Below are positions 15,996-34,805 of a stretch of 64,000 nucleotides of DNA, one piece after another. The notes beneath the pieces are model-generated. The model searched no databases and was not told the origin of the DNA. It worked only from the letters and a program-made list of their open reading frames with translations. The position numbers were made by a program, and so were the translations under genes. Every line of letters begins with the position of its first letter. The stretch's first letter is position 1. Source of the stretch: Bacteriovoracaceae bacterium UBA1511 (GTDB lineage Bacteria > Bdellovibrionota > Bacteriovoracia > Bacteriovoracales > Bacteriovoracaceae); assembly GCA_002323535.1 (NCBI GenBank), contig DCQT01000033.1, forward strand, positions 31,663 to 95,662. Reading direction: 5' to 3'.

Positions 15996-16172
15996 TTCTC
16001 CTCCCATTGAAGATATGAATCTAGCAGCAAGTTTTAGGCCAGTGTCAGAAACATATTTTATTGTTTTAAATGTTTATGACTGACTAATATTTCTACAATG
16101 ACTTTGAACCAAGTTGGCCTTTTAAGGTCTTTGTTCACTTGATTTTCTATTTTAATATCCCGATTTAAGGCG

Positions 16173-18650
16173 ATGAGGAATTTTAGGTACCCGTTGATTA
16201 TTTTAGCTATCCTGTCCATTATCGCCTTTGCATATTTCAATGCGAGTGTTCGAACTTCTGATGGGCGAAATGTTAGGGCCGATAGCTTTGAGCTGCCCTC
16301 GTTGAATAGTTTTTTTAGTGTAGTAGATCAAGGGAAATTAAGGAATGAGTTTGATGAGGTCCTTGCTGGAAAGGCAGTAAGGAGTGGTGACATATACAAA
16401 CGTTCAAAAATTTTTCAGTGGAAACAGGGAGTAAGTTTTTCCCCAGATCAGTCCTATCGATTTTTGAGATTTAAATTATTTGATGATGTGGATTTAGTTT
16501 TGTCTGGAGATTCGCTTGAAAAGTTAGGAGAAAATAGATTCTTTTATTCTGCAGAGATTAATGGTGGAGAAGGAAGGTTAAGATTATCCTATTTCAACGG
16601 TCACGCTATTGGAAGCATTGATCATTTGGGGAAGTTTTATGAAATTAAAATGTACGGAGATGGTAATTTATATGTAACAGAGGTTGAAAGAGAACCGTTT
16701 GAGTGTGATGAGAGCTCTAATGATAATCATCAACAAACGGAAGAGGCACCTCTAGAAAAAAGTGTAAATGAAAGTAGATTGAGTCCCAACAGAAAAAACA
16801 GTGGGCGAGTTTCGCGAAGCATAAGTAGAAGAGAAAACAAAAAGTCTGCAGGAAATATTCAACCTGTAGTAACGGCCAACAATTTAGTTATGGTGCCCTC
16901 GACGATAAGCTCATCCTCTACATTGTTAAATAGCAGTGGTTCTAAAAAGCTCATTGCAAATCTCAACGAGGATTTTAAGGGGGAGACTCTTGTCAGTCTT
17001 TTTGAGGAGGTTCCATCTTCGATACCTAATAATTTATACAATTTTTCTGATCAAGGGGAAAACAAACTAAGAATTTTAATTTTATACACAGAAGAGGCTA
17101 AAGAAGAGTTAATCTTGGATGCTCCCTCCTCTTCTCTTAACGAAACTAATACTGGTATTGAGATACAAAATAAATTAAATAACCACTCACTATCTCTCGT
17201 TAATAGTGCAAATGATACATTAATTAATAGTGGAGTTAGTATAAGACTTGAGTTAGTTGAAGTTGAATCCTTTCCGGCAATAGCTCAAGGATATATCTTA
17301 GGTTCTGATGGCCTAAAAGGTTTGACTGAAGAGCTAGAAGAGGAGGGGTCTTACTATAATTCTTTAATGGAAAAACTAAAGTGTGATAGACCTGGGTGCT
17401 ATTTTGATAATAAATATGGGGTTGTGATTAATGATGATCCGAATGATGGTGAGAAAGCAAAGATAAACTTTGGGCTGTACTGGTGGCCTACTCGGGCGAA
17501 CTATTACTTAGAAAAATCTATGAGTGTTGGCAACAATCAATCACTAAGTGTTCAGTTTGGCTCAGAAATTCGAGATCTTAGAGAAGAAACCAAAGCCGAC
17601 GTGGTGGTTTTGATAACGGGTGATTTTGATTATTATCCTGCTAATTTACAAACAGATGGAGCTGGTAATTATATTTCTTGTGACCCCTCTAATCACACTT
17701 GCGATAAGCTTTGTTTACGTTCTGGTGTCGAGGGAGGTTGGTATTATGATAATGATGAAGAAGTAAAGTTTGTTGAGCCTGGCCAGGGGATGTGCCATTC
17801 TGGTCGATCAAGGATGAACGGACGAGCACTTGGAGTGAGTACAGGTAAAGAAAAAGATGTGAGGACATCAGTTTTTTCCATGGAGTTTAGTTCTGGTGAA
17901 CAAACATTTATTCATGAGCTCGGGCACGTGCTAGGTTTATCTCACAACATTGAAGCAGAGTGTGAATACAATCTTGAGAGCTGTAATAAAAACGATGCGG
18001 CATATCGTGGTGAGGTTAACACGAATGTCATGACGGCAACTATTATGTCTTACGCTAATACTTGTAGACGTATGGGCCTCAGTGATGAAAAGTGTGAGTG
18101 GATTAAAATCTTTTCCAACCCATTTTACATGCATAAAGGGAGCCCGATGGGTGGTAATCTAGGGACAGAGAACCCTAGTTTTACTGCTTGCGCTCTGGAA
18201 ATGATGAAAGGTCATTTCACTAATTTTTATGAGTATTGGTCAGGAGAAAAGGAATTTGTTGAAATCCAAAGGACAACTGTTTGTGATGATGAACACTCTG
18301 AGGTCATTCAGGCTAACATGACAAATCTTTGTAATGGAGAAACGATCAGTGGCTCAGACATGCTAGAAAATAATATCAACAAGCTAATGTCCTTTGATGG
18401 ATGCACAATTATTGAAGGGGATTTAATTATTGAGGGGCAGGTTGCTAGTGCTTTTAGCTCTTTAAATAATTTAGGTTTAAACCCATTCAGGGAGCTGAAA
18501 TCAATTAGTGGAAAATTATCTATTATTGATACAAACCTTAATGGCCTTAATTATTTTGAAAACTTAGAAGAGACTGGGAGCGTCGAAATTGAAGGGAATG
18601 ATCAGTTAAATGTTCCTACTGAAGTGGATTCTTTAATTCACTTTCCCTAG
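16173..18650 (+). CDS. Secreted metzincin zinc metalloprotease with a C-terminal Receptor-L-domain/LRR-like module
   Basis: Signal anchor. FIHELGHVLGLSH is HExxHxxGxxH (17913-17945), with ATIMSYA as a candidate Met-turn. The last ~110 aa read CTIIEGDLIIEG..LKSISGKLSIIDTNLNGLNYFENLEETGSVEIEGNDQL. Confidence 0.8.
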   Translation: MRNFRYPLIILAILSIIAFAYFNASVRTSDGRNVRADSFELPSLNSFFSVVDQGKLRNEFDEVLAGKAVRSGDIYKRSKIFQWKQGVSFSPDQSYRFLRFKLFDDVDLVLSGDSLEKLGENRFFYSAEINGGEGRLRLSYFNGHAIGSIDHLGKFYEIKMYGDGNLYVTEVEREPFECDESSNDNHQQTEEAPLEKSVNESRLSPNRKNSGRVSRSISRRENKKSAGNIQPVVTANNLVMVPSTISSSSTLLNSSGSKKLIANLNEDFKGETLVSLFEEVPSSIPNNLYNFSDQGENKLRILILYTEEAKEELILDAPSSSLNETNTGIEIQNKLNNHSLSLVNSANDTLINSGVSIRLELVEVESFPAIAQGYILGSDGLKGLTEELEEEGSYYNSLMEKLKCDRPGCYFDNKYGVVINDDPNDGEKAKINFGLYWWPTRANYYLEKSMSVGNNQSLSVQFGSEIRDLREETKADVVVLITGDFDYYPANLQTDGAGNYISCDPSNHTCDKLCLRSGVEGGWYYDNDEEVKFVEPGQGMCHSGRSRMNGRALGVSTGKEKDVRTSVFSMEFSSGEQTFIHELGHVLGLSHNIEAECEYNLESCNKNDAAYRGEVNTNVMTATIMSYANTCRRMGLSDEKCEWIKIFSNPFYMHKGSPMGGNLGTENPSFTACALEMMKGHFTNFYEYWSGEKEFVEIQRTTVCDDEHSEVIQANMTNLCNGETISGSDMLENNINKLMSFDGCTIIEGDLIIEGQVASAFSSLNNLGLNPFRELKSISGKLSIIDTNLNGLNYFENLEETGSVEIEGNDQLNVPTEVDSLIHFP

Positions 18651-19148: not shown

Positions 19149-21920
19149 TTAAAACCGTGGGGTGAATGTTCCTCGTGATCTTGCGTTCCTCGAGCCCATA
19201 GCCCCGAAGATTTGGTTAAACCTTCTTTGGTTCCTGTGATTACATGAATTATATCTTTCTATACAAGACGAAAGCCTTTGTTGATTTTGCCTGATGTATT
19301 CATTAATCGGGCTGGTCATAGAATCTTGTGGTTCTAGTAAATCTGTTAGCAAATAAGATTCTCCAGTAACTTCAATGCAGCTCAAGTAATTACCAAGGCA
19401 TGAATTTGCTGTGGCTTTTGCTAGGTCTAGGTTTCCTTCAAAGCGAATGTATCGAAGCTTACAAGTTGGATCATTACCACAATAATAATCTAAGCAGCCT
19501 CCAGCAGAGTTATGCCGCCTTGAAATATAACTTGATAGGCTATCGTTATCTTGGCCACCATTTTCATCGAATAGACTACTGTGATTTCTTCCATCTTCCA
19601 TCCACCAATCAAAAACCTCTTCAGGGGTGAGGTCGTATGGGTATAAGTCTGCAAGTACTTCTGGTGATTCACAATAATTTTTCACACATGAAAATGGGTC
19701 TTCTTCTCCTGCTTGCTCAAAGAGTATGTCCAAGTCATCATATCGACAAGAAAATGAATGTGCCTCTAATGAGGAGGAATTATCACTAATAGAGTAATTT
19801 CTCTCAGGAGTACTTTCATGTTGATTTTCATCTAAACCTTCTTGCGGGGTCGTTTCTGGGCTTTCTTGTTGTTCTCTACCTACAGGCTTTGAAACATAAG
19901 TACCACCAACTCTAAAATGAGATTTTTCGGTTGGTTCGTAATCAAGTTTAAGTGTCCAATCACCCAAAACAGACCAACTATAAGCTCTTTTGTTTGCGGC
20001 AACCTTAGGTGCCATGGATGCATCAAGCGAGTCACTTTTAAGGTACTCTTTTACGATAACTCCAAATTCATTATTTGCGAGATCTAAATGGTGAAGACCG
20101 TCGTTCTCAAAAGGTGTGTCATTGAAAACCTTTGATCTACCAACTATTGTTAAAGCCTTACCATAAAAAAGTAAGGAGTTTGAATTTTGCATTTTCCCGT
20201 AATGAAAAGAGTTGTAGGGTCTATTGTTAAAACCTGGTTGTGTTGTAAAGTTACAACCACTATGAATTATAAAACTTGGAGGTACGTCACGGAGTGTCTC
20301 ACTGTGGTAGATACTTTTCATCAGGAAAAAATTTGCGTACCCATTCACGTGATTTCGTAGGGAGACGCGTTTTATATTATAACTTTCATCATTCCACCAA
20401 TTGTAAATTTGATCACCTATTCTCAAGGTCAATGCCTCGTTTATTTGTTGTTCAATTATACTCATATAATTGTTCTCTAATGGTTCGGGTATTAAGTATA
20501 GGTTTGGAATTTGGTAATTAAATGTGCTAGACCTACTACTTGAGTGAGCGACTATTGATCTTAGCCTCATTGGTTTTTTAAGAAAATCTACATAATCAAT
20601 CAAATTTGCATTTTCCGGGCCGGAGACAGGAGCATCAAAGCTAGCATCCGCACTATGTGCATGATTTGTGGTTTCTTGTGAACTAAAGTCCTCTGCGGCA
20701 ATACCACCGCCCCTATAGGGTGTATCAGAATCCCCGCCATTCCTGAATTTATGATTGTGATCTAAATACTCAATGAGAAGCTTTCTTTCTAGATCTTTAT
20801 CCTGATTGAATCTGATGTCTGTATCGCTTGAGACTTCCACTGGTCTTCCATTTTCTCCCCCGTGATTATCTCTTGGTGTGAGAGAAATTTGTTTTGGATT
20901 AATCCTTGAAATCATTATTTCAGGTTGTGCCATTGGGTTTGGATTTCTTAAGTCTTCACTGGTTGCTTCCAGACTTAAATGTCGTTTGGAATAGGTGAGG
21001 GCTTTTGGAGAAATAACTCTTTCCCCTGTTATTCTTTTATAGGCATTTAATAGGCGTTTTTGACGTCTTGTAAGACCAGTCTGCATAAAGTCTGCATCGT
21101 TAACGAGGAAGAAATCTTCGAAGTGTTTGACTCCAGTCTCTGTTGTTGAAAAAACAGTATATTGATTATTTTTATGCCAGTCATTACCATAAATTCTTGA
21201 CGGTATGCCTTTGAAAAATGGTATCGCAGTTCTTGGTTGAAAATATAAATTTTCCCAATTCCCATCAAGGTCACTAAGAATAATATCAGAATTTGCAGCT
21301 CGAACCTCTGGGACAATTCTTAACCAACCGCGTTCATTTGTTTGAACCCCACTAATTTGAGTTTCTGCTTCTTTTCTCCAAATATAACGATGAATAATTT
21401 GGGTCTCTGGAAATGAGCCGATTAGTAAAGCTCCCTCAAAATTTCCGCGACTAAGAGTGTGAATATCTTTAAACATTCTTCTAAGCGCTAAAACAATTCT
21501 TCCATCTTGGTGAGTTCCTCCATTATATAAATCAGTCACAATAAAGTGCACATCTTTACCTTCTCGTTCGAGATCTTCTCTTAAATTATCAAAGCGCTTT
21601 TCAAGGTTAAATAAATTATAGTCTCTTGATGAAGTCCTCTCATGATCCAAAAGTCTTTTCTCAACCAGTACTATGACAACAGGTCTAGATCCGTGAAGAA
21701 GATTTTCTTTTTGTTGATACTTTCTAGTGTATTCCTCGGAGATATCATTCAGTTCCAGCTCTGAGGAGTAGTACATTTTAAGATCGTTAATTTCATTCGT
21801 ACCATCATTGTTAATGTCGAAATTTTTATACTGATTAATAACTGCCTTTAGCCTTGATGAACTCGCAGCCAAAGATACTGTTGAAAAAAGAGTAAATAAA
21901 ATTAATAGAATAAATTTCAT
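19149..21920 (-). CDS. Large secreted protein of unknown function (923 aa) with a C-terminal Cys-rich module
   Basis: Signal peptide MKFILLILFTLFSTVSLAASS. One DxNxDG Ca-loop-like motif (DINNDGTNEIND). The C-terminal ~150 aa carry repeated C-x3-Y-x(0-2)-C pairs shared with the 858-aa protein. Confidence 0.7.
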   Translation of the reverse strand: MKFILLILFTLFSTVSLAASSSRLKAVINQYKNFDINNDGTNEINDLKMYYSSELELNDISEEYTRKYQQKENLLHGSRPVVIVLVEKRLLDHERTSSRDYNLFNLEKRFDNLREDLEREGKDVHFIVTDLYNGGTHQDGRIVLALRRMFKDIHTLSRGNFEGALLIGSFPETQIIHRYIWRKEAETQISGVQTNERGWLRIVPEVRAANSDIILSDLDGNWENLYFQPRTAIPFFKGIPSRIYGNDWHKNNQYTVFSTTETGVKHFEDFFLVNDADFMQTGLTRRQKRLLNAYKRITGERVISPKALTYSKRHLSLEATSEDLRNPNPMAQPEIMISRINPKQISLTPRDNHGGENGRPVEVSSDTDIRFNQDKDLERKLLIEYLDHNHKFRNGGDSDTPYRGGGIAAEDFSSQETTNHAHSADASFDAPVSGPENANLIDYVDFLKKPMRLRSIVAHSSSRSSTFNYQIPNLYLIPEPLENNYMSIIEQQINEALTLRIGDQIYNWWNDESYNIKRVSLRNHVNGYANFFLMKSIYHSETLRDVPPSFIIHSGCNFTTQPGFNNRPYNSFHYGKMQNSNSLLFYGKALTIVGRSKVFNDTPFENDGLHHLDLANNEFGVIVKEYLKSDSLDASMAPKVAANKRAYSWSVLGDWTLKLDYEPTEKSHFRVGGTYVSKPVGREQQESPETTPQEGLDENQHESTPERNYSISDNSSSLEAHSFSCRYDDLDILFEQAGEEDPFSCVKNYCESPEVLADLYPYDLTPEEVFDWWMEDGRNHSSLFDENGGQDNDSLSSYISRRHNSAGGCLDYYCGNDPTCKLRYIRFEGNLDLAKATANSCLGNYLSCIEVTGESYLLTDLLEPQDSMTSPINEYIRQNQQRLSSCIERYNSCNHRNQRRFNQIFGAMGSRNARSRGTFTPRF
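19432..19498. repeat. 67-nt segment matching 24714-24780 in inverted orientation
   Basis: Hand alignment gives 55/67 identical with no gaps, including an exact 22-mer (19477-19498 versus 24714-24735). Encodes CLDYYCGxDxTCxLRYIRFEGN. Confidence 0.7.
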
Positions 21921-23041: not shown

Positions 23042-25618
23042 ATGAAAGGTTATATTTTTACATTTTTGTTATTCTTTAGCGCATCTATGAATTTATATGC
23101 GGGCCACTCCATTACTTATTCAGACAAAACGTACCCATGCTTTAGTTCAGATGGAACATTTAATTTATACAACAATGTTAGAAGGTGGAGTCGGGAGGAT
23201 TTTCTAATTGGTGGAAATGAAGCAAGGGAAGGCAAAAATTGTTATGGAGCGGGAGCTATTCCTCCTTGGGCACCTAGAATAGCTTATGAGGGATTGGATG
23301 CAATATTTTATCCTGTATGTCGGGAAAGTTATGCTCAAAGAATCGACCCTTATAAACATGGTATTATTTATTACCAAGAAGAAATTTGCCCAGAGGGCAC
23401 TCTTGAAAATTCGGTTTTTAGAGGTTTTTCACTAGATGAAGATTCTTTTTTCGTTGGATTAAATGCCGAGTATCACCGCTTACATGTTCCGTATCGGGCA
23501 ACTTCCCGCCTATCTCAACTAGGCTTTAGTAACCGTTGTGATCTTTTTCACCCAAAGACAAGATTGGCCGGATCAGTTTATTTATTGAAACAGCTTTCAT
23601 TGAATCAAAATTTGTTTGGAGGTCTACACGAGGATTGGAAACCTTATACTTATAATTTAGTGAATGAATCAGGGGGAGTCGAAAGAGAATGTGATGGAGG
23701 GTATTCAGCAGTTGCTACTCACTATGTGCATCAAATTACACTTTGGGAGAACTTTTTTTATTCAAATCATGTTGCCCACAACGCGAGTACGCTCTCTCAT
23801 GAAGGTCAGCATGAGATAGAGTCTCATATTTGGTGTGATCGCAGCGATAGAGGCTTCCAATGTGATACCGGTTATGAAATGTATAATGAGAGCCTGTTTG
23901 ATTTAGGAGACGATGATACAAACGCCTATACAATTTCTACTTGGGTTCAAGAGGATTTAATTAAATCTTTTAAAGTTTTAAATAATAGCACTAAACAGGT
24001 TATTCGATTTTATGACAGAGGAAGACCCAACCCTGGGTATAAATGTATCATGAGGCCTTTGCTTGAAGGATCTCTTGGGTTTTATGCTTTCAATTTTGTC
24101 TCATCAGATAATAAGGGATTCAATATTCCAAAACCTACTTATGAGTATGCGACCTACCCAGAAATGATGAGTGACTTAAACCCTTCCTGGCGTTGTGATG
24201 AGTACCTTTGTGATCCTGCAGACTATGTTTACCTTCCAGGCTTCGATACAAATCTAAGCTGTAATGAAACTCTTAACCGAGATAACATTGAAGTGAACGC
24301 TCATAATAGGATGGTCTGTGATCCGAATAGAGATATTGCAATCGATTATCGAGAAAGAATTATGAATGGATCGCAAGAGAATCACCAAAGTATCTATAAC
24401 AATTATTACAATACTATAATGCGAGAAAAAAGAGCGTGTGCTCCAATAACTCAAGCGCATGTAAGTAACTATTGTGATGAAAGAATTGCTGATGTTAATG
24501 ATGTAGCGATATTGGATGAATATGGTTATATGGAAAAATATTCTCGAAGTGGGGCAGACTTTTGCGTTCGTCGATTTTGTGAGCAAGACGATGTGGTTGA
24601 AAAAATTTGGGGAGAATACAGTGGTGAATATTTATACAACTGGTGGACTGGACTTGATCGAAGTGATGAGGAACTTCTTGAAAGGATTCAAAATACGTCA
24701 GGGGTGGGGAGGAGCTGCTTAGATTATTATTGTGGAGATGATTTAACCTGCATCCTTCGTTATATTAGATTTGAAGGAAATACAGAGTTAGTAAATGAAG
24801 ATTTGAATGAGTGCACAGAGACTTATTTGAGTTGCATTGAAGAAACGGGTGAGGATTTTAGACTGGAAGATTACCCGGAGTATATTATTTCAGAGGAAGC
24901 CGAAAAACCAAATTTAGGAGGATTAACAAGTTCCATTAGTGATGAGCCTGAAGAAGGCCATCTTAGTTCATTTGATCGCTTAAATCACTTTGCCTGCCTT
25001 GAGGCCTATAGAATGTGTGAGGTCCGAGAGGTCGCCATTAAAGGAAAGATATTGGCGAGCTTATATAAAGAAAGGGCCGATTCACTTCCATTTCTTACGA
25101 GAGCTCGAGGCGAAGAAAAAATAAACCCAAGTGATTTTATCTCTCCGCGATTAAGAAAATCTAGTAAGCAGTATTTTACAGATGAGTTACTTCACCATTT
25201 AGAGGGTTTAAATAAAGATCCATATAACTTTGAAAATTTAAAAAAGTTTAACTATTGGTACTCAATGCCTGAAAATAAATCAAGTTTTGCTCACTTTATG
25301 CCCGAGGGATTTTTAAGTATGTATGGAGAGGAATATTCTGAATACATAGCGGGGCCTTGGATAAAAAGTTTTTCGCCTTTAAGTAGAAAAGATCTAAGCA
25401 AGGTGAGCCCAGAGGTTTCTTCTTTGCTTAAAGAAAGAGATAAACTAAGTAAGCTGCTGGCGCATTATTCAGGAAAAAATATTAGATTTATTCTTTTGAA
25501 TGCGTCAAAAAAATTACCAAAAAAGAAGTACTTGTTTCTTCTTCGAAAGCTTAAAAAGGCAAAAAATCTATCCCAAAAAATAAAAGCTCTAAAGGCATTA
25601 ACGATAAAGAAAAAATAG
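23042..25618 (+). CDS. Large secreted protein of unknown function (858 aa) carrying the shared Cys-rich module
   Basis: Signal peptide. The module at about 24563-25018 is homologous to the C-terminus of the 923-aa protein. Lys-rich C-terminal tail. Confidence 0.7.
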   Translation: MKGYIFTFLLFFSASMNLYAGHSITYSDKTYPCFSSDGTFNLYNNVRRWSREDFLIGGNEAREGKNCYGAGAIPPWAPRIAYEGLDAIFYPVCRESYAQRIDPYKHGIIYYQEEICPEGTLENSVFRGFSLDEDSFFVGLNAEYHRLHVPYRATSRLSQLGFSNRCDLFHPKTRLAGSVYLLKQLSLNQNLFGGLHEDWKPYTYNLVNESGGVERECDGGYSAVATHYVHQITLWENFFYSNHVAHNASTLSHEGQHEIESHIWCDRSDRGFQCDTGYEMYNESLFDLGDDDTNAYTISTWVQEDLIKSFKVLNNSTKQVIRFYDRGRPNPGYKCIMRPLLEGSLGFYAFNFVSSDNKGFNIPKPTYEYATYPEMMSDLNPSWRCDEYLCDPADYVYLPGFDTNLSCNETLNRDNIEVNAHNRMVCDPNRDIAIDYRERIMNGSQENHQSIYNNYYNTIMREKRACAPITQAHVSNYCDERIADVNDVAILDEYGYMEKYSRSGADFCVRRFCEQDDVVEKIWGEYSGEYLYNWWTGLDRSDEELLERIQNTSGVGRSCLDYYCGDDLTCILRYIRFEGNTELVNEDLNECTETYLSCIEETGEDFRLEDYPEYIISEEAEKPNLGGLTSSISDEPEEGHLSSFDRLNHFACLEAYRMCEVREVAIKGKILASLYKERADSLPFLTRARGEEKINPSDFISPRLRKSSKQYFTDELLHHLEGLNKDPYNFENLKKFNYWYSMPENKSSFAHFMPEGFLSMYGEEYSEYIAGPWIKSFSPLSRKDLSKVSPEVSSLLKERDKLSKLLAHYSGKNIRFILLNASKKLPKKKYLFLLRKLKKAKNLSQKIKALKALTIKKK
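24714..24780. repeat. 67-nt segment matching 19432-19498 in inverted orientation
   Basis: Partner of feature 19432-19498: 55/67 identity by hand count, with a 22-nt exact run. Confidence 0.7.
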
Positions 25619-25632
25619 GCGAACATTGATTT

Positions 25633-26349
25633 ATGACTGTAAAAAAAACCAGATTCGCCCCAACGCCCAGTGGTTACTTACATCTTGGTAATGTTTATAA
25701 TGCTCTAGCGTGCCAAAAGTGGGCAAAAGAAAATAGCGCAAAACTTGTTCTTCGAATTGATGATATTGACCGGGCGCGGTTTCGAATTGAATACCTTGAG
25801 GATATTTTTAAAACCATGGATTGGCTTGGGATCGAATTTGACGAAGGGCCTAGTGGGGTAGAGGACTTTTTAAAAAACTACTCCCAGCACACAAAGCTTG
25901 ATCAATATAAAAAATATCTCGAACCCGTCTCTCAAGATACCTTTTCCTGTGAGTGCTCAAGAAAAGATTTACTTGGTACTGATCACTACCCCGGAACATG
26001 TAGAGAAAAAAATTTAGCGTACAAAGAAGACTTAAACTTAAGACTTAAACCCATGGATGTGATCATTTATAAAAAAGATCTTCTTCCTAGTTATCACTGG
26101 AGTTGTGTCATTGATGATTATGAAATGAAAATAACTCACCTCATCCGCGGGGAAGACTTAATTCCATCAACCAACATTCAAGAAAAATTAAGAGAGAAGT
26201 TAAATCTACCAGCTATTTCTTCAACCCATCATCCTCTTGTCACTGACAAATCTGGACAAAAACTTTCTAAGTCCACACTGAAAAATGGGGGGCCTTTGAA
26301 AACGATTATTAGTAAAAAGTCGTTATATAAAAAATTAAAAAACAAGTAA
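25633..26349 (+). CDS. gluQ: Glutamyl-Q tRNA(Asp) synthetase (short form)
   Basis: RFAPTPSGYLHLGN (HIGH-like), LRIDDID, Cys cluster CECS..YPGTCR and KLSKS. Confidence 0.85.
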   Translation: MTVKKTRFAPTPSGYLHLGNVYNALACQKWAKENSAKLVLRIDDIDRARFRIEYLEDIFKTMDWLGIEFDEGPSGVEDFLKNYSQHTKLDQYKKYLEPVSQDTFSCECSRKDLLGTDHYPGTCREKNLAYKEDLNLRLKPMDVIIYKKDLLPSYHWSCVIDDYEMKITHLIRGEDLIPSTNIQEKLREKLNLPAISSTHHPLVTDKSGQKLSKSTLKNGGPLKTIISKKSLYKKLKNK

Positions 26350-26354
26350 TACTT

Positions 26355-28025
26355 TTAACGGGCACATTGTTGACCCGTTATATGGTCAATAATAGATTGC
26401 CTATCAATCCCTCTGGCACTAAATTCTGCAGAGTTATTAATGAGGTTGTCCAAACGTGTGGCGCTAGTTGGATTATCTGTACTTCCTATTGACCTTAGAT
26501 AATTGTGGATTAAGTCTAAAGCATTTTCGTCAGTAAGTATTTTTTCTTTATTTTCAGTTGCACTTAAAAGCTGATCAAAAAACTCTATCGGATCACCATA
26601 ACACCGACCGGTTCTTGTGCATGTATATAAACCGGGATCATCCGATCCAAACTTAACACCGATCTTAGTATTTTCCAGGAGCAATTGTAATTGCTTTGCT
26701 ATTTTTTCTGGTTCATTCTCTCCAAGTATTTTGTATGTACTTGGCTGAAAAGAAATGTTTACACGACCTGGAAATAGTTCAGATAAAAAATTAATATTAT
26801 CCTCTGTCAGAGTCATACTGTGATTTACTGTAATCTTTAATTTTTTTCCACTTTGATTATCAACGTAAGAAAGGTTACTGAAAAATTGTTTAATGATTTC
26901 AGGATCCTGTAGATGCTCTCCTTCAAACATATGAAATGAAATAACAGGGTTTTCTTTTTGATCAACCCACCTCACTAATGCATCTCTTAGTCTTTTTTGA
27001 CCTTCTAGACCTTCTTGAGTTGAACTATCTAGACCTTCTTGAGTTGAACTATCTAGATTACTCCAGGAAACTTGACTTGTAAGCAGAGTAGCTCCCGGCT
27101 CATCATACTCTTTTGTGCTTGTGAACAAATCTATCTCGTCAGCATTTAGTGGAATGGTTTCTCCTTCCTTTAAATTGTAAAAATTTACTTTGTGAGATAC
27201 TTTCAGATTAATATTATTATTTAAAAATATATTTTTTAATTCTCTTATTGCTGCTTCATTACCTGCTTGGTCAATGAGTAGATAATCCATGTTGGCCATC
27301 ATGATTGTCATTGAAGAATGTCCTTGATTTGCCCACCTCTTCGAAAAGTTGTCCCAAATTTCTTTGATTTTTAAAGATGTTCCATCTATAATAACATCTT
27401 GATCTATAGTTTTAATTACAGCTCTTCTTGTTTTATGCATTCCTGGAAAAAGATCTCTACGAAACTGGGCAACTGTTGGGTTTGTATTCATCGCGAATTT
27501 CTCAGACCAAGAGAAAAGATTTCTATAATTTGAGGAAGAGAATTCCTCGACAGTCGTTCCTGTTAGTAATTTAAATTTTTCATCAAAGCTATTTAATAGA
27601 TCTTTTAATTTTTCTACTTGCTTGTCATTAAGTATGGCAAATTTTTTCTCTCTATTTGTTGGATTTGTAATCCTTGTTTTCCCGTGTTTTGGGTCGTCAC
27701 TTAGCTCTTCCATTAGGACTTGAAATTTTTTTTTAAAATTTTCTAAATCACAATTTGAGGAATAACCCCTTTGATGTTGATTTAAGCATAGCACCTCGTT
27801 GATGATACCGCGTATTTTTCCATCCTCTATATTTGGGGCGAATACCGCTAAGATTGCTTGATGATCTCTCATCGCCTTAGGATGATTTGCATGTTCAAGA
27901 AGAAAATCTTTTCCATTTTTCACAAGATCTTCTGGGCTTTGAGTTGTTGAGACATGGATATGGTCGCCTGCACTGTGTGCAAAAAAGTGAAAGAATGTGA
28001 TAAACGCAAAAAGTATAATTTTCAT
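26355..28025 (-). CDS. Secreted adenosine-deaminase-family (amidohydrolase) protein with a long insertion
   Basis: Signal peptide. HIH (27954-27962), HMFEGEH (26913-26933; H-x-x-E as in ADA HAGE), VNHS, ISFQPSTY (ADA CPWSSY) and GSDDP (26634-26645; ADA TDDP), in ADA order and with ADA-like spacing in the C-terminal half. I prefer the start at ATG 28025, preceded by GGGAGG. Confidence 0.5.
   Translation of the reverse strand: MKIILFAFITFFHFFAHSAGDHIHVSTTQSPEDLVKNGKDFLLEHANHPKAMRDHQAILAVFAPNIEDGKIRGIINEVLCLNQHQRGYSSNCDLENFKKKFQVLMEELSDDPKHGKTRITNPTNREKKFAILNDKQVEKLKDLLNSFDEKFKLLTGTTVEEFSSSNYRNLFSWSEKFAMNTNPTVAQFRRDLFPGMHKTRRAVIKTIDQDVIIDGTSLKIKEIWDNFSKRWANQGHSSMTIMMANMDYLLIDQAGNEAAIRELKNIFLNNNINLKVSHKVNFYNLKEGETIPLNADEIDLFTSTKEYDEPGATLLTSQVSWSNLDSSTQEGLDSSTQEGLEGQKRLRDALVRWVDQKENPVISFHMFEGEHLQDPEIIKQFFSNLSYVDNQSGKKLKITVNHSMTLTEDNINFLSELFPGRVNISFQPSTYKILGENEPEKIAKQLQLLLENTKIGVKFGSDDPGLYTCTRTGRCYGDPIEFFDQLLSATENKEKILTDENALDLIHNYLRSIGSTDNPTSATRLDNLINNSAEFSARGIDRQSIIDHITGQQCAR
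27005..27057. repeat. Perfect 24-bp tandem duplication (2 copies plus a 5-nt partial), in frame within the CDS
   Basis: CTAGACCTTCTTGAGTTGAACTAT at 27005-27028 and 27029-27052. Encodes LDSSTQEG twice. Confidence 0.95.
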
Positions 28026-28027
28026 TT

Positions 28028-31000
28028 TTACCTCCCACACGCTTTTTGCAATGATTTTATTATTTCTTCATCTGAGAAGAATTTCAATGCTGGGTTTTCT
28101 TTTCGTAGTTTTGAAATTCTTCGACTCATTGATGAACCTTCACCTGCTTCTAAAATCTTTTTAATTTTTATTAAAGCTTTCTCTGCAGTAGACACGCGAA
28201 CAGATGTTTTCAATTTTTCTAGCTCACTGGCCAATTCGCTGTTAACAGTTCTTTCAGGATTACTTTCGATTATTTCTTCGATAAGTCTTACTTGCGCTTT
28301 GATCCTGGATAGTTCTTTTCTATTTGCCTTAATAACCCGATAAGGCAAGGCCATTGCTGAATAGAAGGCACCAGGTATTTTTGCACCAGTTTGAATAACA
28401 GCATCTGAGACCTGCCGAGTTCTCGAAAATGGTTTCAAAAGATCTAGATTGTGCTCGATGATTTCTAAAGCTTTAGGTGCATCTTTGAAAATCTCTCTCA
28501 TTGACTCTAAGGCGATTTTTTCCGTTCCGCCTTCCGCTGCAGCTTTCATCTGTTTGACAAATTTATTTAAATTTTCACCATCAAGCGCTTCTAAAAATTC
28601 CCTTAATGCTTCTTCATTTTCAAACAGTCCCCGAAGAAAACTTCTCTTTGGTCTAAATCCTCTTGTCCACCCAGACCTAAGAGCGTCTATTATTTCAGGG
28701 TTGTCTGTGAGAAGGTCAAACATTTTTCTTCTTAATGCTTGGTCCTGTATATCCTCAAACCCTAGTTTTCTTATCATCTCCATTCTGTTTTTTTGGAGCA
28801 TATATTTTGAAGGATTTTTTAGGAAACTTGTTGGTTTCCCGGACATATTTGAAATCCGTCGAAGATCAGAATCAGTAAACTCTTCTAATTTAAATAACTC
28901 TTTGTATGTTGCTTTTAACTCATTCTTCGCAGCTGATGATGCCGCTTCAATCGCCTCTTTTGACGCATTAGAACCAACTAGTCTAGCAAGGGTTTTATTT
29001 GCTTTTTGAAATTTTCTATAGTGGGCAACTTCTTTTATGTCACCAAGAAAGCCAAGAGCAAATAATGGAACCATTGCCATTTCCATATTTGAATCTGAAA
29101 TAGCAGCATCATGTCGCTCATACATCTTAGTTAAGTCATCAATTGAGCAAGATTTATCGCCTTTATACAAGCAAGACAAATAGGACTGAAGTTCTCTAGT
29201 TGTTTGATATCTTTTTCCAAGAGAGCTATATAAATACCAACCAGTACAAATCGCGTCCCCAACAGCTCCAGCAACCTTTGCTGGTGGAGGGGCCATTGTT
29301 AGTGCACCAGCTGCTAAGCACGTTCCCATGACAATTCTCTCCACAACTTTATCAGCATCAAGATCCGCTTGTTCTTTTGCCCTCTCTTTGTTTAGTAAAC
29401 AGCTTCGAACCTCCTCTAGACCTGGGTTATCTGATATAAAGTCTTGTCCAACTTTTCCCTCAAGTAATCTAAGAAATTTATTTTGTTCCCCATCCTGGTC
29501 TTCCTCATTTTTACAAAGCTCCTTAAGTTCTTTGTCTAAAGCAGTGTAGTTCTCTTCAAACTCTGATTTTTGACTTATTTCAACACTACTAAACGGTTTT
29601 TCGTAATATCCGCCGAAAATGTTCCCACTATGTCTATATTTTACTTTGCAATTAGCAGGTTCAGCAGTGAAAGATGTACTGAATGGATCTTTATAAAACT
29701 TCACACATGTTTTTTCATCACCAGTTGCAAGTGAAAGTGAAATTGATGGATCCAAATTATTAAGGTCTTCAATACTAATTTCACCTGCACTAAACAGACT
29801 CGTTTTGCCCTCAGAAGGTTTTAGTCCAACACCTAATGCAGGAAACCTGGTTACAGTCTTCGCAATTGATTCCATTACGAGTCTAAATTCCTCTATTTCT
29901 TGTTTTGCTCGCTCAGCACTAACTTTAAAATCTCGTGTTTGCCTTCCTCCTTCGCTTGAGCACCACTCTCTTAAATTACCTCGGCCAATAATCGTTTCAC
30001 TGTCGTATGTTGGAATCGCTAATTGATCGGAGGGAAATTCGCTAGTATATCGGTCAACGGGAAGGCATATCGCGTATTTTCCTATACCTGTTATTAAGGT
30101 CTCAGCAATTGTTTGTCCTGTCTTAAGTAACCCTGGTTTAAATTTTTCATATTTTTTGTAAAGTTTGTGTGCTCTTTTGATCTGAGCTTGAAATGATTCC
30201 TTAATCTCTTTTAATTCTGTAGTGCTTAATTTTTCAGGTCGCTTGATACCAAGCTTTTTGCATTGGAACTTTTTATCTCTTGGCGCTTCTGAATAAAACT
30301 TGGAATCAAGGTTTGGACAATTTTCATTATTTGTTTTTAATCTGATAGAGATTGTTTTTAATGAACTCCCTTCAATCGTGTATAGATTATTTTTGTACTT
30401 TTTAATCTTTTTTATATAGTTTTCGTCATTAATTCTAGGTGTTAGTGATTTATTATTGATGACAGATCGACAGATCGCTTTGACTTTTTCAATTTTAGTT
30501 AAGTGTTTTATTGAGTCTTTTATAAAATTCTCTGAGTCGTAAGACTCTGGGTTACTTGCAATTTTCTTAATGACTTTTCCTATCCTTTTTTGAGCGTAAG
30601 GGTTTTTACATCTTCTGTTCTGGCAGTTGTCTGTGATACCACCTGGTTCTGATGTTTGAATGTCACATTTTACCTCGTCTTGTGATTTTGACTTTATCGA
30701 TAACTGTTTTGACCTAGAGGTTATACAGTGTCCTTTGTCTTTAGTTACTTTAAAGTCTCTTGGACACCTTCTTATTTTTGGGTGAACTATTTGATTATTC
30801 CTATTTGTCCGCCCCTCAATTTGTAGAGCTCCACGTCTCGAACCAACAACTTTTAAAAATGCATGTCTTGTTGTTGGTGGTATGACCTGGTCTAATTTAA
30901 CTCCCGTGCTTTTGGCCATTGCTAATAATTCTCTTCTGGACAGAGATGTTTGGAGACAGTCCATTCTTTTTTCAGGTAATTTTGTCATGCACACAGCAAA

Positions 31001-33352
31001 TTTTTTCTTAAGTGTGTGATTAACTTTTCTTGTTTCTGGGTCATAAAAACCCTGTTCATGATTTTGTTGTTCGGTAAATTTAATCAAATTGGAGAATGCT
31101 TTATAATTGCTTAATAATCTACATTTAGGATTATTTTTATCATTGTTACATTTTTCTTTGATCTCAGAAATTGCTAAATGAGATTCATAGGAAAAGCATT
31201 GAGTAGCGTATTTAGTAATTAACTCCTCCTCAAACCCAGTTCTTGGTTTTCCCTTGTAATCTTTACTCGCTTGAATTGCCTTAATTCGATTTCTTTGACC
31301 GATAGGAGCGGTCCTTACAAACTGTGGGAGACTTTTGAATGTAGCAGACTTGAATAGTTCTTGTCTTGCTTGACCACATGACAGCTCACTTACATCACAA
31401 GAGCTCGTCGGCTGCCTTTGGCACATGGCTTCCTCATCCTGCTTAATAAAATCTGAAATCTGTTGCAACGTTTTAGCTGGATAGTAACTAAGCTTTGGAA
31501 ATCCTTTTGCACACCTGGTTATGTAACGTTCTTGGTTAAATGTAAGGTCTGTTGACCTAACTCGGCTCATTCTAGACTTTCGATCGCTATAAACATCAGA
31601 CCTTGCTTCCCTTCTCTGTACTTCCGTCTTTTCGGGTGAGTATGCGTCTGTTGCAATTGGATTGTCTTTATTCTCTGTGTACTTAATTATAGGATTCAAA
31701 TTATAACTTTTACAACTTGGATTCTTTTTTAAAGCCTGTGCACTGCTTTGAGTCATCCTATCAGCATAAGAATATTGAAACGGTGAAAGGCTCCTTTGAG
31801 CACCTTTTTCTTCAATTGATTTAACTGAAGATATAACTGCTTTTTGAAGTCTGTATTTTTGAAAATCATTCAACTGTGATACTTGAACGCAAATTTTCTT
31901 GGGTAGTTGATCTAGTTTGGAGATGTAGAATTTTGTGAGTTGGGTATTACCTAAACATGACTTAATTTTGGATACTTCTTTTTTTTGTGCCGGGTGTAGA
32001 CACTTTTTTTGCTTGTTTGTCTTTGTAATTCTTAGTGTGGATACTTTTGCTCGTTCGCAAAATTTTAAGTCGGGAGAATGCAGTTGCGGTTTTTCTTTAC
32101 TTAATGGAGGGATTATCAGAGGTAGGGGGAATTTTGCATCAGACTTAATCTCAATTTGATACTGATCCTTTAGAGATTTAAAAATTATATCCTGATAGTA
32201 ACCGGCCATTTCTGGAAAACCTTTCCCTGGAGTGATAACTATTTTGGGCTTTTCCCCCTGAAGGGTCGATAACTTTATGTATGGTGCTAACCTCTGGATA
32301 AGTTTATTAAAATATTCGTTCTCCTCCGGGTTCTTGATTCTGCTTCTACCAATAGCTTTTTGCAATACTCCTGCTGCAACCTTCTTAGAGGCACAGCCCC
32401 AAACGCTAAAGCCTGAGCCGTATTCAAAAGGATTTTCCTCTGAGCAAGAATGAGGATCACAAAAACTTTTTGTTTTAAACTTTAAGCCTTGAAATTCAGA
32501 AAATGTGAGGTATCCACATCGGTTCTTAAGAGATTTACCTTTTAATTGTGATAAGTAATCACTCAGGCGAGGGCAGTTACAGTGGTGTTCACTTAAACAC
32601 TGTTCTGCAAATCCTTCTGCAAAAGGGATTCTTATATCCCTATCCCTCCATAAGTCATCCAGTCGACTTGTAACAGATGAGTGTGAATACTTAAGCCCCT
32701 CTTTTACACCTAATGTTAGAACTTGCTCAGGCACCTTCCTTTTTTTACATCTTAGGACTGTAAATTCTTTTTTTTGAAAAAGCTGAGATTTGTATATACC
32801 TTTGTCGGTTGTTGCTTTTGTGTACCCGTACAGTTTAAGTAGTTTTCTTATTATAACTTCGGGCATGTGGTCAATTTTCGAGTCCAGAAATTTTCTTAAT
32901 TTCTTGAATGATTTCGGGGTGAATATGCTCTCTGTAGATAAAAGTATTTCGCGCTTAAGCCTCAGGTAATTACTTATACTTCTGTGTCCCTGGTAGCGCG
33001 AATTATTTACAATTTCAGAGAAGATTGACTTAAATGGCTTGAGATAATCTTTGACAAGTTTAGTTGAGAGATTTTTAAGTCGTGCTGTTTTGTTGGCATC
33101 ATAATCGTTTTTATTTTTAATTACTTTAAATAACTCAATCTTTTCAAAGTCATCATCTTTTTGTTTTTGGGAGCATCTTTTGTAATCAACTAATACTCTT
33201 CCTCTAAGTATTGATGAGGCGGGTTCTGGCTCTCTTCGTGCTCTTTGGTCGCTCTTGTAGGACTCTATCTGTCGCTTGCAGGAATACTCACCTTGAGCGT
33301 AAGAGCTTGCAGTTATTAAGCAAATCAATGTAAAAAAGAAGTATCTATTCAA
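28028..33352 (-). CDS. Giant secreted Cys/Lys-rich protein of unknown function (1774 aa)
   Basis: Uninterrupted 5.3-kb ORF. TTG start, then signal peptide NRYFFFTLICLITASSYA. About 1250 aa are basic and Cys-rich, followed by a Gly/Ala hydrophobic segment and a ~450-aa Cys-poor helical tail. I recognise no family motif. Confidence 0.8.
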   Translation of the reverse strand: MNRYFFFTLICLITASSYAQGEYSCKRQIESYKSDQRARREPEPASSILRGRVLVDYKRCSQKQKDDDFEKIELFKVIKNKNDYDANKTARLKNLSTKLVKDYLKPFKSIFSEIVNNSRYQGHRSISNYLRLKREILLSTESIFTPKSFKKLRKFLDSKIDHMPEVIIRKLLKLYGYTKATTDKGIYKSQLFQKKEFTVLRCKKRKVPEQVLTLGVKEGLKYSHSSVTSRLDDLWRDRDIRIPFAEGFAEQCLSEHHCNCPRLSDYLSQLKGKSLKNRCGYLTFSEFQGLKFKTKSFCDPHSCSEENPFEYGSGFSVWGCASKKVAAGVLQKAIGRSRIKNPEENEYFNKLIQRLAPYIKLSTLQGEKPKIVITPGKGFPEMAGYYQDIIFKSLKDQYQIEIKSDAKFPLPLIIPPLSKEKPQLHSPDLKFCERAKVSTLRITKTNKQKKCLHPAQKKEVSKIKSCLGNTQLTKFYISKLDQLPKKICVQVSQLNDFQKYRLQKAVISSVKSIEEKGAQRSLSPFQYSYADRMTQSSAQALKKNPSCKSYNLNPIIKYTENKDNPIATDAYSPEKTEVQRREARSDVYSDRKSRMSRVRSTDLTFNQERYITRCAKGFPKLSYYPAKTLQQISDFIKQDEEAMCQRQPTSSCDVSELSCGQARQELFKSATFKSLPQFVRTAPIGQRNRIKAIQASKDYKGKPRTGFEEELITKYATQCFSYESHLAISEIKEKCNNDKNNPKCRLLSNYKAFSNLIKFTEQQNHEQGFYDPETRKVNHTLKKKFAVCMTKLPEKRMDCLQTSLSRRELLAMAKSTGVKLDQVIPPTTRHAFLKVVGSRRGALQIEGRTNRNNQIVHPKIRRCPRDFKVTKDKGHCITSRSKQLSIKSKSQDEVKCDIQTSEPGGITDNCQNRRCKNPYAQKRIGKVIKKIASNPESYDSENFIKDSIKHLTKIEKVKAICRSVINNKSLTPRINDENYIKKIKKYKNNLYTIEGSSLKTISIRLKTNNENCPNLDSKFYSEAPRDKKFQCKKLGIKRPEKLSTTELKEIKESFQAQIKRAHKLYKKYEKFKPGLLKTGQTIAETLITGIGKYAICLPVDRYTSEFPSDQLAIPTYDSETIIGRGNLREWCSSEGGRQTRDFKVSAERAKQEIEEFRLVMESIAKTVTRFPALGVGLKPSEGKTSLFSAGEISIEDLNNLDPSISLSLATGDEKTCVKFYKDPFSTSFTAEPANCKVKYRHSGNIFGGYYEKPFSSVEISQKSEFEENYTALDKELKELCKNEEDQDGEQNKFLRLLEGKVGQDFISDNPGLEEVRSCLLNKERAKEQADLDADKVVERIVMGTCLAAGALTMAPPPAKVAGAVGDAICTGWYLYSSLGKRYQTTRELQSYLSCLYKGDKSCSIDDLTKMYERHDAAISDSNMEMAMVPLFALGFLGDIKEVAHYRKFQKANKTLARLVGSNASKEAIEAASSAAKNELKATYKELFKLEEFTDSDLRRISNMSGKPTSFLKNPSKYMLQKNRMEMIRKLGFEDIQDQALRRKMFDLLTDNPEIIDALRSGWTRGFRPKRSFLRGLFENEEALREFLEALDGENLNKFVKQMKAAAEGGTEKIALESMREIFKDAPKALEIIEHNLDLLKPFSRTRQVSDAVIQTGAKIPGAFYSAMALPYRVIKANRKELSRIKAQVRLIEEIIESNPERTVNSELASELEKLKTSVRVSTAEKALIKIKKILEAGEGSSMSRRISKLRKENPALKFFSDEEIIKSLQKACGR

Positions 33353-33359
33353 TAGATAC
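33341..33359. promoter_or_regulatory. Perfect 9+1+9 palindrome centred on the start codon of the 1774-aa gene
   Basis: GTATCTATT-C-AATAGATAC. The TTG start (comp. 33350-33352) lies at its centre. Confidence 0.4.
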
Positions 33360-33384
33360 TCTTCGGTAGAAGAAGGGTAATTAA

Positions 33385-34683
33385 TTAGGGATTTGGAAAC
33401 CTCAATAATTTAGGCTTATGCTCACTACAGCTATATAGATTTTGTTTACGGTAAAACTTTTTACACCCAAACATTTTAAATATTCCTGGTTCCCTTAATA
33501 AAATTTCATTTAGTCTAAAACTCCCAGAGGGATGAACCCCGTCATCTTTAGTGCCGCATAGTATTTTGTAAGAGGAGGTGAGTAATCTAAGTTTTTTCAT
33601 TTTGCTATAGCTTCTATTTTCAAGCTCGCGTGAGATAGAATCAGCGGCGAAAATGTCGGCCATAATTTCGTCTTTGTAGTCGATAAGGATTCCTTTTGTT
33701 AACCATGACCCTGGATAATGATTGGCCATACAAAGTATTGTTTCAGACGCTCTTTTTGGAGAAATCACCATATGTTTTTCATGGCCAAAAAGATGTCCTA
33801 ATTCATGAGTGATGACCATTAACATTTTAAAAAATATCTCATCTCTGTGGTCTTCAATATTTTCTTTGTTGTATATTTCGGCCATGAAACTTGGACAAAA
33901 AGTAACAGGGATATTGTGAGGAAGTTCACTTAATTTTTGACCTGGCACGAATGCACTTCCAAAAACTCCATAATACGTGCAGTTTCGAATAAAGCCATCT
34001 CTTGCAAAGTCATAACTGTCTTTAAACCTTGCTTCTGCTTTTGGGTTCAAACTAAAAAGCGGTTTGATGCGGTTTAAAAGTTCTAAGGCACTTTTAATTT
34101 TTTCTTCTTTTTGTTTTCCACTATATTGTTTTGATAAATGGTTTTTTATACTTGTTGAAAATGTTTCAATTGATGAGTTGAAAATATCTTCTAAAAGATC
34201 TTCTTTTGGTTCTATAATATCACTAAGGTGTTGTTGTTGTCGTTGATAGTACTCAGCAAATAGGTTTTCTTTTAGCTTAATTACTTGCTCTTCTTTTTCA
34301 AGATATTTATTTAAAACTGTATCTAGTTTAGAGTTGATTTCACCCCATCCACAAGTTTTAGGTATCTCTTCTTGTGATCCACATCTGTTGAACATTTTTA
34401 TATCAAAATCAAAAAATTGGCTTGTATCTAATTCATTTATTCCGTGAATTTTGAAGAGATCAACACTACTTTCGATTGTCTCGTAAAAGGGCTTTAGTGC
34501 AATCCTTCTTATACTTTTTTGATTGCTTTTGAAGTTTTTTGAGTCGCAAATAACACTTGTTGGGTTTTTACAAAATTTTTCAAAAATAGGATCTTCTAAT
34601 TCTTTACTAGACTGACAGCTCTCGCTTCTCAAGGCCGCATTTATTAGTAGCGTGCTTAATATTAAAATTAATTTTGTTTTCAT
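33385..34683 (-). CDS. Secreted zinc metallopeptidase-like protein (HExxH), family unassigned
   Basis: Signal peptide. MLMVITHELGHLFGHEKH (about 33775-33807). Several Cys residues. Confidence 0.65.
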   Translation of the reverse strand: MKTKLILILSTLLINAALRSESCQSSKELEDPIFEKFCKNPTSVICDSKNFKSNQKSIRRIALKPFYETIESSVDLFKIHGINELDTSQFFDFDIKMFNRCGSQEEIPKTCGWGEINSKLDTVLNKYLEKEEQVIKLKENLFAEYYQRQQQHLSDIIEPKEDLLEDIFNSSIETFSTSIKNHLSKQYSGKQKEEKIKSALELLNRIKPLFSLNPKAEARFKDSYDFARDGFIRNCTYYGVFGSAFVPGQKLSELPHNIPVTFCPSFMAEIYNKENIEDHRDEIFFKMLMVITHELGHLFGHEKHMVISPKRASETILCMANHYPGSWLTKGILIDYKDEIMADIFAADSISRELENRSYSKMKKLRLLTSSYKILCGTKDDGVHPSGSFRLNEILLREPGIFKMFGCKKFYRKQNLYSCSEHKPKLLRFPNP

Positions 34684-34718
34684 TCTTGATCCCCTCTTTA
34701 GTTATTGGGGCAAGAATG
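34681..34718 (-). promoter_or_regulatory. 5'-UTR hairpin enclosing the SD and AUG of the zincin gene
   Basis: The minus strand reads CATTCTTG-CCCC-(12-nt loop)-GGGG-AT-CAAGAATG. This is a 12-bp stem with a 2-nt bulge, and the 3' arm ends in the start ATG. Confidence 0.4.
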
Positions 34719-34805
34719 AATCCAAAACTTTGTTTTAAAGTTTAGTGCTTTAAACATTTTCATCTGTCTAATTTTTAGACGATGCAGTTTTTAACTTTTA
34801 TATTT

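Follow-up and report, generated by a model that had tools for sequence, protein, structure and literature searches.

The M48 peptidases (Escherichia coli BepA, LoiP, YcaL and HtpX; yeast Ste24) are marked by the ordered motifs [N/S]AF...HExxH...ExxAD...HPxxxxR, and BepA, LoiP and YcaL are periplasmic. In the M13 peptidases (neprilysin, PepO, ECE) HExxH and ExxxD are followed by a C-terminal D-x-H-x-P-xxx-R-x-N...F..F.C motif; these enzymes possess a helical non-catalytic domain and extracytoplasmic disulfides. The ADA/Add branch of the amidohydrolase superfamily carries HxH, HxxE, H and DD in this order, on strands 1, 5, 6 and 8 of the barrel. Large secreted effectors and polymorphic toxins (RHS/YD, RTX/MARTX, giant adhesins) stand out by size and export. 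Features of all these groups are found in a three-gene locus on the minus strand of a 64,000-nt stretch of contig DCQT01000033.1 from Bacteriovoracaceae bacterium UBA1511 (hereafter the window, meaning the whole stretch analysed). Its genes encode a HExxH peptidase (zincin, gene 1), a very large protein (giant, gene 2) and a putative hydrolase (gene 3). We favour, with a probability of about 0.4, a reading of the locus as a co-expressed, lineage-restricted export operon that belongs to an uncultured marine bacterium of low GC content and lies beside a menB-like gene. It is not demonstrated to be a three-part machine; the zincin-giant pair is the recurrent core.

Relatives were collected by a word-indexed protein search, by contig look-ups and by one metagenome scan. 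The word-indexed search yielded four zincin relatives (48-79% identity), one relative of gene 3 (P0003; 40% identity) and, with the giant as query, the query itself only. In the window and in the loci L003/L008, L004/L005, L001/L002 and L006, the genes of interest occupy one chromosomal site, located after the same genes for enoyl-CoA hydratase (ECH), a GNAT acetyltransferase, a DTW-domain protein and MltA. A zincin gene followed by a giant-type gene was present in all four lineages with an intact zincin, and the intervening gaps in the relatives measured about 33-49 nt. In L003/L008 the zincin is 62% and the giant (at least 1769 aa) 38% identical to the window proteins; ECH identity is 96%, and the contig ends before gene 3. 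The corresponding values for L004/L005 are 48%, 38% (giant of 1784 aa) and 93%, and a third gene is present; L004 is the one other contig long enough to show a third gene after the giant. In L001/L002, the closest relative genome (flanking genes 95-98% identical to the window; ECH 98%, GNAT 97.5%), the zincin is 78% identical. The gene after it encodes a different Cys-rich protein with predicted export (L001 11471-11809; L002 1658-3418), and the contig again ends before gene 3.

Across these lineages the flanking ECH is thus 93-98% identical, the zincin 48-78% and the giant at most 38%: the zincin-giant pair diverges far faster than its neighbours. The L002 downstream protein shares with the giant the region of a hydrophobic hairpin alone (27% identity over about 115 residues), and nothing N-terminal to the hairpin module in the L001/L002 gene matches the giant. 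This suggests that the N-terminal region of the giant was replaced in the closest relative. The giant family has a constant C-terminal module of about 470 aa, with an unrelated part N-terminal to it in that relative.

The arrangement of the genes was as the first-pass annotation had described it, with three co-directional minus-strand open reading frames (ORFs), 32 nt between zincin stop and giant start, and a GGGAGG-TAA-AA-ATG junction between giant and gene 3; the tightly packed three-gene locus is confirmed (Table 1). At the junction the Shine-Dalgarno (SD) sequence of gene 3 (GGGAGG, 28036-28031) sits within the final codons of the giant gene, and the giant TAA (28030-28028) stands 2 nt ahead of the gene 3 ATG (28025-28023). 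An alternative GTG start of gene 3, 15 nt upstream, would give a protein of 561 aa. In L004 the final giant codons contain AAGGAG, the ATG of the third gene follows after 5 nt, and the two genes overlap by 13 nt at the giant stop; the geometry of giant/gene 3 coupling is therefore conserved.

Table 1. Features of the zincin-giant-gene 3 locus (window coordinates; assignments of function and export are predictions)
Feature	Position	Strand	Description
Intergenic region, MenB-like enoyl-CoA hydratase gene to zincin gene	34684-34805	-	122 nt
Gene 1, zincin	33385-34683	-	432 aa, ATG start, HELGH inside
HELGH zinc-binding helix codons	33793-33807	-	zincin residues 293-297
Gene 2, giant	28028-33352	-	1774 aa, TTG start; signal peptide MNRYFFFTLICLITASSYA, then QG
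Giant residues 20-1250	29603-33295	-	basic (pI 9.7, net charge +99), Cys-rich, low sequence conservation
Giant residues ~1274-1740	28133-29533	-	conserved C-terminal module of ~470 aa, family core
Giant residues 1341-1378	29219-29332	-	Gly/Ala-rich hydrophobic helix-PPP-helix hairpin
Giant/gene 3 junction	28023-28036	-	GGGAGG-TAA-AA-ATG, preceded by gt
Gene 3	26355-28025	-	556 aa from ATG; amidohydrolase/ADA-type motif set; exported
Gene 3 H22-I-H24	27954-27962	-	HxH motif, right after signal peptide
Gene 3 H365-MF-E368	26922-26933	-	HxxE motif
Gene 3 D462-D463	26637-26642	-	DD motif; H402 lies between HxxE and DD

The zincin gene is preceded, 7 nt ahead of its ATG, by the SD sequence AGAGGGG (about 34697-34691), and a promoter is presumed to lie in the intergenic region upstream of it. 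In a site scan no terminator-like site was found after the gene upstream of the zincin. Within the locus neither promoter-like matches (22 vs. 28.9 expected from shuffling) nor terminator-like matches (2 vs. 7.1) were in excess, which is compatible with a single transcript without proving one. One promoter-like match (TTGAAA-17 nt-AATAAT, 10/12; window 28059-28087, minus strand) falls within the 3'-terminal part of the giant gene, some 35 nt before gene 3 begins, and could give gene 3 a separate transcript; such matches are no more frequent than expected by chance in this AT-rich region. At the other end of the locus, the stop of gene 3 lies 5 nt from that of a convergent GluQ-tRNA-synthetase-like gene (25633-26349; stops at window 26349-26355), leaving no space for a terminator between them. 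Four independent assemblies (a cluster of four members: JGI, NCBI/Tara, Logan and ENA) contain the giant ORF intact, so it did not arise as an artefact of assembly. The locus has the same GC content as the window, and one scan of viral contigs returned no zincin relatives; there is hence no sign of recent transfer or of phage origin.

Sec-type signal features, namely a K/R n-region, a 10-residue hydrophobic core (Kyte-Doolittle mean 2.6-3.5) and small residues at -3/-1 near positions 15-25, were present at the N-termini of the three proteins and of every homologue found. They were judged by a simple scoring of our own, not by SignalP, and this scoring bore out the signal peptides that had been annotated on each protein. 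All three products thus have predicted Sec signal peptides and conserved cysteine skeletons. Searches of Pfam, NCBIfam, PHROGs and PADLOC gave no significant match for any of the three proteins or their homologues. Sequence-profile searches of the PDB with the zincin, its catalytic half, the giant, the giant C-terminal module and gene 3 gave chance-level matches only. Literature searches gave nothing that bears on the locus, except that they showed MDTG01 to be a Pacific marine metagenome assembly. By their residues, zincin and gene 3 would be catalytically intact enzymes outside the reach of current family models.

After its signal peptide the zincin divides into two halves, the N-terminal one helical and about 200 aa long, the C-terminal one catalytic. 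Besides the HELGH helix it contains SAF (residues 243-245), E339-IMA-D343 and H384-PSGSF-R390-L-N392. In an alignment of five homologues the residues H293, E294, H297, E339, D343, H384, R390 and N392 were invariant, as was the entire stretch HELGHLFGH (residues 293-301), and all 11 Cys were kept in every homologue covering them. Initially the protein had been regarded as impossible to place in a family. No family model accepts it indeed, but the motif set common to M13 and M48 (SAF..HExxH..ExxAD..HPxxxxR) identifies it as a predicted gluzincin at clan level, in which all catalytic residues of such a peptidase are retained. As the two families share this set and matches to both are weak, it is placed as a gluzincin only, putatively catalytically intact and in no existing family.

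Compared with a profile of E. coli M48 proteins (BepA, HtpX, LoiP, YcaL) by hhalign, the zincin gave E values of 1.2e-4 to 2.6e-4 at a probability of 42-55%; the match was local, covering 37 columns at the HExxH helix. The same motifs occur in the same order in these four proteins (NAFA...HExxH...ExxAD...HPxxxxR, with ExxAD and HPxxxxR at positions 201 and 246 in BepA and 222 and 276 in HtpX), and HPxxxxR of the zincin aligns with that of M48 in MAFFT. Predicted export is shared with periplasmic BepA, LoiP and YcaL, and the ExxAD-to-HP distance is M48-like (45 aa vs. 43-54). Unlike M48 members, the zincin has the extra helical N-terminal half and 11 conserved Cys, and other spacings deviate (SAF to HExxH 50 vs. 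30-34; HExxH to ExxAD 46 vs. 59-83). The Pfam M48 model (PF01435) did not match any of the five homologues even at E≤10.

An AlphaFold2 model of the zincin built from five sequences had a mean predicted local distance difference test (pLDDT) of 66 and a predicted template modelling score (pTM) of 0.69. Its top two Foldseek matches were neprilysin (4cth) and PepO (4iuw), with probabilities of 0.98 and 0.96 and all others at or below 0.12; on a model of this confidence both matches are weak (E 0.08-0.13, template modelling (TM) score 0.34-0.37). HExxH, ExxAD and the C-terminal H-P...R-x-N...F..F-C of the zincin align with Methylibium, Lactococcus PepO and Streptomyces M13 sequences, taken from plasmids, and hhalign E values for the C-terminal motif were 0.011-0.024. 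Like M13 enzymes the zincin has a helical non-catalytic domain and, by prediction, extracytoplasmic disulfides. Unlike them it is short (432 aa vs. 630-750 aa or, in a second comparison, 627-685 aa), its motif spacings are compact (46 and 45 vs. about 60 and 60), and the large N-terminal domain of M13 was not detected. Neither zincin nor homologues were recognised by the Pfam M13 models PF01431/PF05649, and no M13 entry appeared in the PDB profile search with the zincin. A clean M13 assignment, favoured after the Foldseek comparison, was dropped because the M48 sequences contain the same motif set with a better profile E value. The zincin was also considered as a lipoprotein; Cys23 is conserved but no lipobox is seen ahead of it, and this option was rejected. 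In L009 (51-194) the last ~45 residues of a zincin homologue (70% identity) are preceded by in-frame stops and followed by unrelated genes; this is a gene remnant or a chimeric contig (1.5 kb, coverage about 1).

The giant contains 44 Cys and has a net charge of +105 and an isoelectric point (pI) of 9.5. Its earlier description as basic and Cys-rich holds for the Cys content, about 2 standard deviations above that of other window ORFs, better than for the charge, the density of which in the N-terminal region is only about 1 standard deviation above them. The basic character of this region is retained in homologues. Forty of the 44 Cys, an even number, are invariant in three homologues at 39% identity, 34 of these 40 lie within residues 20-1250, and at 27% identity 22 of the 27 alignable Cys are still Cys. 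A Cys framework kept at such low identity speaks for an extracytoplasmic protein stapled by disulfides.

The giant had been described as lacking any recognisable domain, and neither such a domain nor a signature of RHS, RTX or adhesin proteins was found: searches of Pfam, NCBIfam, PHROG, PADLOC and PDB returned nothing significant for it or its homologues, and self-comparison detected no internal repeats. A reading as RHS, RTX or adhesin protein was rejected on these grounds. A HMMER search with residues 575-1774 against 1.84 billion representative proteins gave seven hits, about five of them real: the query, the L004 giant, P0013 and P0014 (pieces that carry the C-terminal module), two small fragments and one spurious hit, P0016, with cadherin-like repeats. 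Two scans of GTDB species representatives, with alignments of the giant and of gene 3, gave no matches. By these searches the giant is a true orphan, from a tiny family in few marine lineages.

Its C-terminal module also occurs in P0013 and P0014 and partly in the L002 protein. P0013 and P0014 are parts of a distant homologue (27% identity, Cys framework kept) found in another context, near dus, ffh and rpsP (L017 5931-11662; L018 5323-12307). In these long-read assemblies the homologue is split into several colinear ORFs, due either to frameshift errors or to a pseudogene. In L018 about 480 residues without counterpart in the window giant come after the module.

The giant shares size and predicted export with large secreted effectors. 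Its fast evolution and modular build, in which close relatives have one part in common while another has been exchanged, are likewise toxin- or effector-like. It differs from RHS, RTX and adhesin proteins by the lack of repeats in self-comparison and of RHS, RTX, Ig-like or beta-helix domains in library searches, and from those effectors in general by its Sec signal peptide and about 20 predicted disulfides. Unlike in polymorphic toxins, library searches recognised no toxin or immunity genes at the locus, and the constant part lies at the C-terminus and the replaced one at the N-terminus, whereas those toxins show the opposite order.

Gene 3 had been annotated as ADA-like. The complete ordered motif set was found, together with a low-confidence TIM-barrel model, but no significant similarity: neither PF00962 nor an equivalent Pfam or NCBIfam model matched, and no ADA entry appeared in the PDB profile search. 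H22, H24, H365, E368 and H402 were invariant in three sequences (window gene 3, P0003 and the L004 third gene), and D462 and D463 (DDPG) were present in both of the family sequences that reach that far. In a MAFFT alignment with five adenosine deaminases the segments HMFEGE/HAGE, NHS/GHG, QPST/CPTSN and GSDDPG/NTDDPG were aligned, and from strand 5 on the spacing is ADA-like (37 and 60 residues vs. 23 and 57). hhalign picked the same motif segments at E 0.36 against Add and E 0.19 against a profile of the five sequences. The AlphaFold2 model (pLDDT 55, pTM 0.51) shows alternating strands and helices at residues 361-459. The Foldseek matches of this low-confidence model were metal-dependent TIM barrels at TM scores of 0.25-0.4, in the order L-rhamnose isomerase (1e-4), adenine deaminase 3rys (1e-3) and ADA 3iar (4e-3); dihydroorotase and imidazolonepropionase were also among the matches.

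Gene 3 thus keeps all metal-binding and catalytic residues of a mononuclear ADA-type amidohydrolase. It is probably an ADA-like amidohydrolase, a motif-based reading in which membership is not established. Its signal peptide is a feature in common with ADA2, and the secreted ADA2/ADGF enzymes provide a functional analogy. Unlike the ADA branch, it contains about 160 extra residues between HxH and strand 5, its HxH lies 2-6 residues past the predicted signal-peptide cleavage site, and its top fold match is L-rhamnose isomerase. In L006, where ECH is 84% identical, a 720-aa gene 3 homologue, carrying some 180 inserted aa that the window protein lacks, follows directly after ECH. Just downstream of this full-length homologue an 88-aa ORF (L006 6332-6595, plus strand) corresponds to the C-terminus of the gene 3 family (profile positions 513-588, E 1e-7), apparently left over from a duplication.

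Zincin and gene 3 are, to judge from their sequences, new remote variants of known superfamilies, and for the giant no relatives are known beyond its small clade. According to the favoured reading of the locus as an export operon, the three proteins would be made from one transcript, exported by Sec and disulfide-bonded in the periplasm or beyond. The giant would be a soluble, disulfide-stapled exoprotein whose fast-evolving N-terminal region may confer target specificity. The zincin may be its dedicated partner, either a maturation or quality-control peptidase like periplasmic M48 enzymes or a co-effector. Gene 3 would be an older resident of the site, co-translated with the pair and encoding a separable extracytoplasmic hydrolase or deaminase. 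The rapid divergence suggests a role that faces outward, toward prey, competitors or particles, rather than housekeeping.

Several observations weigh against this reading. The trio, proposed at the outset as a conserved module, holds together as zincin and giant in four lineages and with a third gene in L004, but its parts also occur separately. In L006 gene 3 stands at the same site with neither zincin nor giant, and no zincin or gene 3 homologue was found in the roughly 5 kb before and 10 kb after the L017/L018 giant; the lone gene 3 and the lone giant show that the trio is not obligatory. The L004 third gene has 22% identity to gene 3 at a non-significant E of 0.23, and its putative orthology is based on position and motifs. 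Nothing ties the zincin to the giant as its substrate, confidence is low for both structure models, zincin and gene 3, all family-level comparisons are weak, and the giant charge is near background.

Alternatively, the genes may be unrelated neighbours that encode independent exported proteins, share a transcript through genome compaction and form no complex or pathway. We consider this rather unlikely. It would agree with the separate occurrence of gene 3 and giant, with the many window genes that overlap or sit a few bases apart, and with an evolutionary rate of gene 3 (22-41% identity) differing from that of the other two. It does not account for the succession of zincin and giant-type gene in every lineage with an intact zincin, nor for the persistence of the SD-overlap between giant and gene 3 despite deep divergence of both proteins.

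The pair could alternatively serve envelope biogenesis, the giant being a structural protein of the cell's own periplasm or surface and the zincin a BepA-like chaperone-protease that helps to fold or remove a 20-disulfide substrate, with no other organism targeted. The best profile match of the zincin, to periplasmic M48 proteins (E 1e-4), the agreement of NAFA, HExxH, ExxAD and HPxxxxR in order and spacing, and the conserved Cys framework speak for such a pair. A structural protein with a housekeeping role would not usually diverge so fast or have the region N-terminal to the hairpin replaced in the closest relative, nearly all bacteria lack the family by the HMMER search, and no M48 structure was within the top 50 Foldseek matches of the zincin; we regard this explanation as improbable. 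A comparably low likelihood is given to the more specific proposal that zincin and giant form a two-component effector of an undescribed kind, exported by uncultured marine bacteria that may be predators. The giant would then be a 20-disulfide carrier in which the C-terminal module stays constant and the N-terminal head can be swapped, the compact gluzincin would mature or activate it, and the deaminase-type enzyme would be an optional third component.

A membrane-active toxin with an activating protease would require that the Cys-bracketed hairpin inserts into a target membrane after processing by the zincin, in analogy to colicin or diphtheria-toxin translocation domains. The hairpin is flanked by invariant C1345 and C1369. 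It and a second hydrophobic stretch in the family core are the sole elements shared with the L002 variant, and the rest of the core has chance-level PDB matches only, all to helical proteins. The hydropathy maximum outside the signal peptide, however, is 1.47 at residue 1336 (19-residue Kyte-Doolittle mean), under the usual membrane-segment threshold of 1.6, and hydropathy thus does not support a confident transmembrane hairpin. The hairpin arms are only about 14 and 19 residues long and one of them contains an invariant Asp, the locus has no small gene of immunity type, and Pfam and PDB searches revealed no similarity to pore-forming families, which renders the toxin very doubtful. Surface scavenging of nucleosides or nucleotides, with the basic giant (pI 9.5) binding nucleic acids and gene 3, through its ADA-type motifs, deaminating released adenine nucleosides, is highly unlikely, since library searches found no nuclease, phosphatase or transporter gene in the operon, amidohydrolases act on many substrates, and the giant charge is near the genome background.

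If zincin and giant work together, they would represent a new family of exported proteins, very large and rich in disulfides, that comes with its own minimal gluzincin. The family would be restricted to one little-known marine lineage and would evolve like an arms-race locus. The pair would then be a candidate entry point to how such bacteria attack or attach to other cells. If the genes are merely neighbours, the locus is an ordinary cluster of hypothetical exported proteins. Whatever the function, about five real relatives of the giant in 1.84 billion proteins illustrate the diversity of unclassified large proteins.

The neighbours of the locus are ordinary, comprising, in addition to those named above, a gene for GTP cyclohydrolase I. 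Across the whole 64-kb window no tRNA genes and no Rfam families at gathering threshold were found. Large window ORFs (486-923 aa) without an NCBIfam family are located at 23042-25618, 19149-21920, 9375-11588, 14487-16007 and 4906-6366; the 858-aa ORF, the only one of these also run against Pfam, has no Pfam family either. The genome of the window is thus rich in orphans, and lack of annotation is not peculiar to the trio. A further ORF of 825 aa (16173-18650) gave a weak metzincin (Mep72-like) match.

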